A stretch of DNA of 62,891 nucleotides from Candidatus Woesearchaeota archaeon (GCA_023265685.1 JAHFSP010000004.1:1-62891); one strand, 5' to 3'. Shown: positions 2,025-2,182, counted from the stretch's first letter. Notes: a model not told the origin generated them from the letters alone. A program made the numbers and translations.

Positions 2025-2182
2025 TTATTACTCGCTGGGTCTAATACCCCGTTGCTCTGCAACGATATAAGCGAGTAATAACCAGAAATCCGTTTTTTAG
2101 AAATCGCCGAATACCCCGCAGCTTGCTGCGGAGTGAGCGGAGCGAACGATGGGTAGGCGATTTCAGGATTTCTGAGTTTATT
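2025..2182 (-). repeat. Structured palindromic dispersed element, copy 1 (no inserts)
   Basis: Its reverse complement matches 31645-31974 once three inserts are removed. Nested inverted repeats: TTATTACTCGCT/AGCGAGTAATAA, CAGAAATCC/GGATTTCTG, GAAATCGCC/GGCGATTTC, CCGCAGC/GCTGCGG, CGTTGC/GCAACG. Confidence 0.9.

Follow-up and report, generated by a model that had tools for sequence, protein, structure and literature searches.

A probable palindrome-associated transposable element in a Woesearchaeota-type archaeal genome

Copies and junctions of the repeat

The stretch of DNA analysed here (the window; 62,891 nt, JAHFSP010000004.1:1-62891 of the Candidatus Woesearchaeota archaeon assembly GCA_023265685.1) has an archaeal gene content, including a PriS-type primase, RNA polymerase subunit L and PAC2, and carries two copies of a foldable non-coding repeat. 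With considerable confidence, we classify this repeat as a palindrome-associated transposable element (PATE) and place it among the non-autonomous members of the IS200/IS605 family of insertion sequences (IS). Copy 1 spans 2030-2182 on the plus strand and copy 2 spans 31645-31969 on the minus strand; each is located between co-oriented minus-strand genes and the two face opposite ways, in agreement with the initial annotation of this DNA. Copy 1 is a 153-bp short form, directly preceded by TTATT (2025-2029, plus strand), the presumed target or transposon-adjacent motif (TAM), and closed by a second TTATT (2178-2182, plus strand), the presumed transposon-encoded motif (TEM) and right-end cut site. 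Its layout is TTATT, ACTCGCTGGGTCTAATACCCCGTTGCtctGCAACG...AGCGAGTAATAA-CCAGAAATCC...GAAATCGCCGAATACCCCGCAGCttgCTGCGG...GGGTAGGCGATTTC-A-GGATTTCTGAGTTTATT, followed by the element end.

A repeat search with MAFFT alignment recovered copy 2 in reverse orientation as four collinear blocks with 90-100% identity to copy 1. This 325-bp long form has the short-form backbone and exceeds copy 1 by 172 bp owing to three extra pieces of 53, 60 and 53 bp, which are nested twin-hairpin inserts; read on the minus strand, its preceding TTATT lies at 31970-31974. The annotated second copy, reversed and 29.5 kb away, is real; its few substitutions hold for the backbone, to which the three inserts come in addition. 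Nor are there only two copies, as had been assumed: across the source assembly (55 contigs, 1.28 Mb; G000 in comparisons with relatives), BLAST, a read-out of its matches and a regular expression for the junctions gave at least eight, several at contig ends, plus decayed fragments. Besides copy 1, the short form is found at the end of contig C22 (9244-9342) and the start of C25 (1-120), both 100% identical to copy 1 and probably a single copy split by the assembler. Full long forms are encountered at C48:3900-4224, C34:1261-1585 and C51:7250-7574 (98.5-99.1% identity to copy 2), and further long-form sequence, at the end of C20 and the start of C15, is cut by contig ends. An older copy with an internal deletion (C40:14209-14378), a truncated left end adjoining unrelated sequence (C13:36620-36642) and solo 22-nt right tails (TTTCAGGATTTCTGAGTTTATT), each beside unrelated sequence (C33:5391-5413, C55:7738-7759, C35:19290-19306), are decay forms expected of transposons.

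All left junctions in this genome read TTATT followed by ACT..., and all right junctions ...GAGTTTATT followed by unrelated sequence. TTATT precedes eight of eight left junctions here, the left junctions in eight other genomes and a transposase-bearing IS described below, and its presence at both sides holds for all copies in nine genomes. The element ends, ACTCGCTGGG... and ...TTCTGAGTTTATT, have only a 4-5-nt inverted similarity (ACTC/GAGT), and the repeat search listed no inverted pair joining the two ends of either copy. No real coding capacity was detected, the sole frame of at least 60 aa (31705-31971, 88 aa) crossing the hairpins of copy 2 and being missing from copy 1. All copies occupy intergenic spacers. 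The six complete copies leave long open frames uninterrupted, and in two of them (copy 1 and C48) TTATT overlaps the stop codon of an opposite-strand gene. Since the complement of TTATT, AATAA, contains TAA, insertions often abut or regenerate opposite-strand stop codons. This accounts for the annotated overlap with the stop codon at 2178-2180, which we confirm: the complement of the terminal TTATT gives the TAA of the open reading frame (ORF) at 2178-2741 and, because the right end regenerates TTATT, this stop is unchanged whether the element is inserted or not. For the 187-aa ORF, which lies on the minus strand immediately upstream of copy 1, neither Pfam nor NCBIfam gave a match. A scan for tRNA and tmRNA genes found none.

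Fold of the element and its IS200 partner

The foldable element was found where it had been annotated, as TTATT at 2025-2029 plus the 153 bp of copy 1, with a minimum free energy of -65.9 kcal/mol against -43.9 ± 3.8 kcal/mol for shuffled sequences (z = -5.8; none of 200 shuffles as stable). A consensus fold inferred with RNAalifold from 13 copies of eight genomes, with the inserts stripped from three copies, comprises eight helices and 53 pairs, with 95.4% of the alignment cells paired. Double-sided (compensatory) changes are present at 12 of the 53 pairs, compared with 4.7 ± 1.4 in column shuffles (0 of 500 as high) and 0-3 with the partners slid.

The fold has two domains. The left-end domain (2025-2081, plus strand) consists of an outer 12-bp stem (2025-2036/2070-2081) around GGGT/ACCC and a hairpin, with compensatory changes at four stem pairs; the stem takes in the flanking TTATT, which pairs with internal AATAA (2077-2081). 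Within it, the AATACCCCG motif and the hairpin CGTTGC-tct-GCAACG (2043-2064, plus strand) align with the GGGTCTAATACCCCG-hairpin of an IS left end. The left hairpin is presumably a TnpA-binding palindrome and AATA a candidate DNA guide. The right-end domain (2083-2174, plus strand) is a long compound hairpin of nested stems (2083-2091/2166-2174 and 2100-2108/2156-2164, then TACCC/GGGTA) with an IS-type hairpin at its tip and a side hairpin (2135-2147) between CTGCGG and GGGTA. Its 22-nt AATACCCCGCAGCTTGCTGCGG motif and hairpin (2110-2131, plus strand) are identical to the IS200 left end on contigs C51 and C5.

The C51 end belongs to a complete, tnpA-only IS200 element (C51:~79317-79896), which was recovered by a genome search for ATACCCCG. 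Its left side is TTATT followed by CCCTTTGTGGGTCTAATACCCCGCAGCTTGCTGCGG..., its right side ...GTAATACCCCGCAGCTTGCTGCGAAG...GGGATAGCC...GGTTTATT with terminus GCCGAGGCGTAATACCCCGCAGCTTGCTGCGAAGCGACCGTAGGAAGCGGTGGGATAGCCTCGGCCAAGAATAGGTTTATT, and a single 145-aa ORF lies between the ends, which are in direct orientation with TTATT at both junctions. The ORF matches PF01797 (Y1_Tnp; E 1e-28, 100 bits) and the IS200 equivalog NF033573 of NCBIfam (112.8 bits, cut-off 55), and its product aligns with the solved structures 2ec2, 2xm3 (ISDra2) and 2a6m/2vhg (IS608); an HLH triad, taken as the HUH motif, and the Tyr of KKYVKNQ both fall inside the structure-aligned stretch. The ORF thus encodes an intact Y1/HUH TnpA of the IS200/IS605 family. 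Left-end and right-end fragments of the same IS are present at the ends of contigs C5 and C24.

The initial annotation had likened the GC-rich hairpin of the repeat to IS200/IS605 subterminal palindromes, and this likeness is borne out: AATACCCCGCAGCTTGCTGCGG is identical to the IS left end over 22 of 22 nt (C51, C5) and to the right end over 21 of 22, the left motif GGGTCTAATACCCCG is also common to both elements, and AATACCCCG also precedes the different left hairpin of the repeat. All four ends (left and right, PATE and IS) align on AATACCCCG-NNGCT(C)TGCNNCG. The outer stem of the right domain, GAAATCGCC/GGCGATTTC in the PATE and GCCGAGGC/GCCTCGGC in the IS, has different letters and is paired in both. 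Because the sequence outside the aligned core differs, the PATE is not a simple deletion derivative of the IS. Such derivatives do occur, as an 85-nt element at C11:59052-59136 (L012) is made of the left and right IS ends with the two hairpins fused into one. Terminal-only elements of 85-100 nt were also observed with different flanks in other genera, at C27 and C29 of genome G017 (L048, L047) and C36 of G037 (L046). These terminal-only elements are a second, minimal PATE family from the same IS.

The junctions could also be read as those of a classical miniature inverted-repeat transposable element (MITE): a DDE transposase would move the element, ACTC...GAGT would be its short terminal inverted repeats, and its 5-bp target duplication would by coincidence be TTATT. 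Every copy is indeed flanked by TTATT on both sides, and its two ends match in inverted orientation over 4-5 nt (ACTC[G]...[T]GAGT). However, a duplication should vary with the target, yet TTATT is found with all copies of the nine genomes; the tnpA-bearing IS shares the TTATT junctions but has no inverted ends of this type (CCCTTT.../...ATAGGT); and the internal hairpins match IS200 ends. We consider a MITE the least probable of the alternatives, at the very margin of what the data allow.

Three Y1 transposase loci were found in the genome, two of which (C24:7614-7973 and C21:181-540) represent a second IS200 subgroup with different ends. The TnpA annotated 2 kb from copy 1 belongs to this subgroup: it is real, but it is truncated and not cognate. 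The window begins with the right end of this IS (1-118, plus strand), cut by the contig start, with the last ~37 codons of tnpA (2-112) and a hairpin at 90-110; the end hairpin of the subgroup is CCCCACCAtttaTGGTTGGGG, the end sequence ...GGTTCAA stops at 118, and neither matches the PATE. The primase gene at 115-1575 has its TGA stop (complement of 115-117) inside this IS end, and an IS end thus supplies a gene's stop codon here as well.

No TnpB gene was detected, as PF07282 (zinc-ribbon/TNB domain) had no match anywhere in the genome, compared with matches in 8 of 14 control genomes. A PATE carrying omega-RNA or TnpB was accordingly rejected, given also the lack of an omega-RNA-type Rfam match. 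On the minus strand at 4465-5825, the window encodes a serine recombinase (Resolvase and Recombinase domains) with a 4-bp overlap to a protein bearing an HNH nuclease in place of the resolvase; this pair was rejected as the mobilising enzyme on account of its unrelated chemistry and non-matching ends.

The motif and hairpin extend far beyond this genome. The 21-mer AATACCCCGCAGCTTGCTGCG, scanned exactly in one genome per prokaryotic species, has at least 119 exact occurrences across many bacterial and archaeal phyla, with hosts including Lachnospiraceae, Methanotrichaceae, Methanosarcina, Woese- and Pacearchaeota, Patescibacteria, Desulfobacterales, Spirochaetes and Nitrosomonas; by our own arithmetic, about 0.3 matches would be expected by chance in 2 x 596 Gb. 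A TnpA homologue with 41-73% identity to that of C51 adjoins the 21-mer in five of 80 loci (L049-L128). Many of the other loci are ~50-nt single-hairpin units (TTTATT, ...GGGTTTAATACCCCGCAGCTTGCTGCGGGGA...TTTATT) between ordinary housekeeping genes, and most occurrences of the 21-mer are in small, intergenic single-hairpin units bounded by TTTATT or TTCATT. From these comparisons, the presumed DNA recognition site is far more conserved than the TnpA enzyme, and the window element is one elaborated branch of a very widespread IS200-type end. A literature search for the hairpin sequence found no paper containing it.

Small units of this kind raise the question of whether the repeats are instead similar to the repetitive extragenic palindromes (REP) and bacterial interspersed mosaic elements (BIME) of Proteobacteria, served by a domesticated REP-associated tyrosine transposase (RAYT) and not by a mobile IS. 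Both systems have short intergenic hairpins handled by a Y1/HUH enzyme, the ~50-nt minimal relatives look REP-like, and the 21-nt motif with its hairpin recurs as such intergenic units in many prokaryotes with tnpA adjacent in just the five loci mentioned. In contrast to a single-copy RAYT with inverted REPs, however, the C51 tnpA is bracketed by direct-orientation ends with TTATT junctions, scores as an IS200 equivalog and sits in an IS present in more than one place, given the end fragments on C5 and C24. The repeat itself has a left and a right domain that differ, shares its ends with a bona fide IS and, at 153-325 bp, is far above REP size (20-40 nt); the RAYT-type arrangement was not seen. 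We thus judge a REP/RAYT system to be very improbable, if a shade less so than a MITE.

Distribution across relatives and proposed mechanism

Comparison with relatives supports mobility of the PATE. The convergent-gene spacer holding the C48 copy is uninterrupted in the same-genus genome G001, where the alignment crosses the predicted junction with a 4-nt gap, and the S27e-eIF2alpha spacer holding the C34 copy measures 70-130 bp without the element in five relatives of five genera, with the downstream promoter box conserved. At the copy 1 locus, G001 retains rpoL and PAC2 and lacks the element; the intervening DNA, the 187-aa ORF included, is unalignable and offers no exact empty site. The check for empty sites suggested initially has therefore identified two unoccupied sites, though neither is nucleotide-exact.

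BLAST returned matches in 14 of 41 near relatives, with unrelated flanks. A covariance model built from 13 copies, a check likewise suggested at the outset, detected the element in 9 of 301 genomes of an even class-level sample, spread over seven families. Copies from different genera are 87-92% identical over their full length, compared with 64-81% for flanking genes, which fits horizontal spread, strong constraint or both. Among the 41 relatives, a TnpA more than 70% identical to the C51 enzyme is restricted to G000, G017 and G039, and G000 and G017 are also the two genomes with the largest numbers of element matches. In G017, the relative richest in such matches, the cognate tnpA (C47:5183-5611, L170; 78% identical) has one TAA at or near the end of the match and may be a pseudogene or shorter.

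The alternative offered by the initial annotation, a structured non-coding RNA gene family of paralogues conserved for its fold, with the hairpin inserts as expansion segments, is consistent with the very stable fold, the compensatory changes at 12 pairs, the high between-genus identity and the location of copies in intergenic spacers by promoters or stops. However, covariation is also predicted for a transposon folding as single-stranded DNA, and the copies stand in unrelated contexts and both orientations, two occupied sites are empty at the orthologous position of relatives, truncated and deleted copies exist, high copy number is seen only alongside a cognate tnpA, and the conserved core is common to IS ends. 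Rfam likewise gave no match to the whole window at gathering thresholds. For copy 1 at E <= 10 the best match was an H/ACA snoRNA at chance level (20 bits against a threshold of 100 bits, E 0.94); the long form, the IS and the 85-nt mini element had no Rfam match, and six other hairpin-bearing loci gave nothing real. An RNA gene family is accordingly unsupported and, while the best placed of the alternatives, we regard it as highly improbable. The other original suggestion, a non-autonomous mobile palindromic element, is instead supported by the copy number, the two unoccupied sites, the patchy distribution, the covariation and the match to IS ends.

The element resembles the PATEs defined in Haloquadratum walsbyi, such as HqIRS46 and HqIRS56, whose palindromes are targeted by small repeats (Dyall-Smith et al. 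2011, PMC3119063). Like those, it is too short for a transposase, lacks inverted terminal repeats, has near-terminal palindromes matching IS200/IS605-type transposons of the same genome together with a conserved terminal oligonucleotide, forms homogeneous subfamilies of >90% identity, and belongs to a type of element in which other small repeats are often inserted within or close to the palindromes. Terminal-only derivatives formed by deletion between similar palindromes are also shared, the 85-nt C11 element corresponding to a 52-bp "core-deleted" form in Haloquadratum (PMC3119063). In contrast to the haloarchaeal PATEs, the host is a Woesearchaeota-type member of the DPANN, the partner IS has tnpA only in a genome where no tnpB was found, and long closing stems enclose the hairpins, which lie 14 nt and 51 nt away from the element ends.

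Similar parallels apply to IS608 (Helicobacter pylori), ISDra2 (Deinococcus radiodurans) and ISGst (Geobacillus stearothermophilus), which serve as mechanistic models of IS200/IS605 transposition (PMC10055086) and with which the present system shares a homologous Y1/HUH TnpA, similar hairpins at both ends on one strand, and a fixed 4-5-nt motif beside the left end with a similar motif closing the right end. The foot of the left hairpin is 19-20 nt from the left junction, and the corresponding distance in IS608 and its relatives is likewise about 19-20 nt. Unlike these systems, the present element uses TTATT on both sides, its right hairpin sits well away from the right terminus, and there is no TnpB or omega-RNA partner. 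Gene-less PATE-like derivatives have also been seen in G. stearothermophilus (PMC10055086).

By analogy with IS608, ISDra2 and ISGst, a C51-type Y1/HUH TnpA would bind both hairpins on the single-stranded top strand, for example on the lagging-strand template, and would cut 3' of the flanking TTATT on the left and 3' of the terminal TTATT on the right, with the donor resealed. The resulting single-stranded circle would be pasted 3' of another TTATT with no target duplication ("peel-and-paste"). AATA, which stands on the 5' side of each hairpin, is complementary to TATT by Watson-Crick pairing and is a candidate DNA guide to the positions of cleavage. Capture through more distant TTATT sites is the probable origin of the outer stems, since the spacing between hairpin and cleavage motif is flexible in the IS200/IS605 family; Meers et al. 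reported flexible guide-motif spacing and the use of alternative downstream motifs, by which extra DNA is captured (PMC10055086). We consider it probable that TTATT marks the target and the element end instead of being a duplication, and likewise probable that mobilisation is due to the C51 TnpA.

Several observations weigh against this interpretation. Exact-match scans of metagenome contigs, two in number, gave no nucleotide-exact empty site for copy 1 or copy 2, and consequently a TTATT target with a TTATT element end and a fixed 5-bp TTATT duplication are both formally compatible with the data. Several copy-bearing genomes have no detectable cognate TnpA, an arrangement described as common for PATEs (PMC3119063). 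The opposite strand of copy 1 is about equally foldable (z = -6.2), and the excess of G:T over A:C on the top strand (17 versus 8, with the most divergent copy left out) is a weak lean, giving a weak hint that the top strand is the folding strand. The distance between the right hairpin and the right end, 51 nt, exceeds the ~8-12 nt of the minimal relatives and the roughly 10 nt of IS608, and cleavage geometry must therefore rely on flexible spacing or melted outer stems. Finally, insert 1 of the long form comes between AATA and the left hairpin, and yet this form seems to have spread; unless the insert folds away, AATA would not be the guide.

Twin-hairpin inserts and implications

The three inserts of copy 2 are placed as follows. 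Insert 1 (31900-31952, minus strand; 53 bp) separates AATA from CCCCG of the left motif with TA/TA flanks, insert 2 (31759-31818, minus strand; 60 bp) occupies the right-hairpin loop with TG/TG flanks, and insert 3 (31667-31719, minus strand; 53 bp) falls between GCGATT and TCAGG of the right-end stems with TT/TT flanks. The solo right tails described above start precisely at the end point of insert 3. Each insert consists of two adjacent 8-11-bp hairpins with CAAGAAA...TTTCTTG-type termini and a 2-bp flanking repeat. The grammar observed is CA(A)GAAA-stem-loop-stem-TTTCTG-nn-CAGAAA-stem-loop-stem-TTTCT(T)G, with stems that vary per instance.

A centre-out search for adjacent perfect hairpins (stems of 8 bp or more, gaps of up to 8 nt) found 18 pairs in the genome, 13 of them within PATE copies, and none in three shuffles. 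Further twin hairpins in the source genome were noted at C39:25209-25268 (L001), C42:4025-4125 (L002), C32:12437-12490 (L003) and C55:49463-49516 (L004), with others in relatives (L035-L042). Across instances the flanking 2-bp repeats are TA, TG, TT, AG, AA or CA, and the sites are motif/hairpin junctions or hairpin loops of IS200-type ends. G017 and G021 share a homologous twin hairpin in the left-hairpin loop, whose stems differ between them by compensatory changes. A further twin hairpin follows CTGCGGAG in G021, with AG/AG flanks, and in G017 one twin hairpin is nested at the central TA of another, itself sited at AATA^CCCC of the right end.

Some twin hairpins reside in other repeats. C32:12385-12540 (L003) and C55:49410-49570 (L004) are two diverged, oppositely oriented copies of a repeat with TATAGTCA.../...TGACTATA-like ends, a GTCCAACTT...AAGTTGGAC hairpin and the same twin-hairpin module at a matching internal position. 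An intergenic region of ~230 nt at C39:25110-25345 (L001) has long-range complementary arms (GTCCTAAG...CTTAGGAC and CCTGCCAC...GTGGCAGG) and a twin hairpin with AA/AA flanks; it had no Rfam match even at E <= 1, and may represent another repeat or a structured RNA gene not recognised so far, into which a micro-element may have inserted.

The long form is the most abundant and homogeneous subfamily in this genome (at least five copies at 98.5-99% identity), indicating that the inserts did not stop its spread. Copy 2 is read as the same PATE hit by three self-folding 53-60-bp micro-elements, after which the composite went on spreading. The closest precedent is SMR-A of Haloquadratum (HqIRS42/43/55), which likewise comprises small gene-less repeats favouring PATE or IS605-type ends, in or beside palindromes (PMC3119063). 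However, SMR-A measures ~110 bp and causes no duplication, whereas the inserts described here are 53-60 bp with 2-bp flanking repeats, consist of two adjacent 8-11-bp hairpins, and reside in a host PATE that evidently kept spreading. A bolder and rather doubtful possibility is that the long form reflects three-level parasitism without disabling the host, in which a new class of micro-transposons homes into IS200-type ends and into each other. It is similarly speculative that the micro-elements are tolerated by folding themselves up in the single-stranded intermediate, thereby restoring the TnpA geometry, with their stems then changing compensatorily. If true, twin-hairpin micro-elements of 53-60 bp would be among the smallest mobile DNAs described so far.

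No other IS family is as widespread in archaea as IS200/IS605 (PMC13343696), and finding a PATE in this genome is therefore expected rather than surprising. Ordinary IS200/IS605 biology accounts for the conspicuous repeat, and for several breaks in the assembly, of this Woesearchaeota-type DPANN genome, and a simple annotation rule for such genomes follows: TTATT, ...AATACCCCG-hairpin..., TTATT end. The analysis adds a documented PATE family to a little-studied lineage for which our literature search gave no description of non-autonomous elements. As the complement of the target, AATAA, holds a stop codon, these elements tend to settle harmlessly at gene ends. The long-form PATE, with three insertions beside or inside the recognition hairpins, provides a natural experiment on the spacing that a TnpA tolerates.

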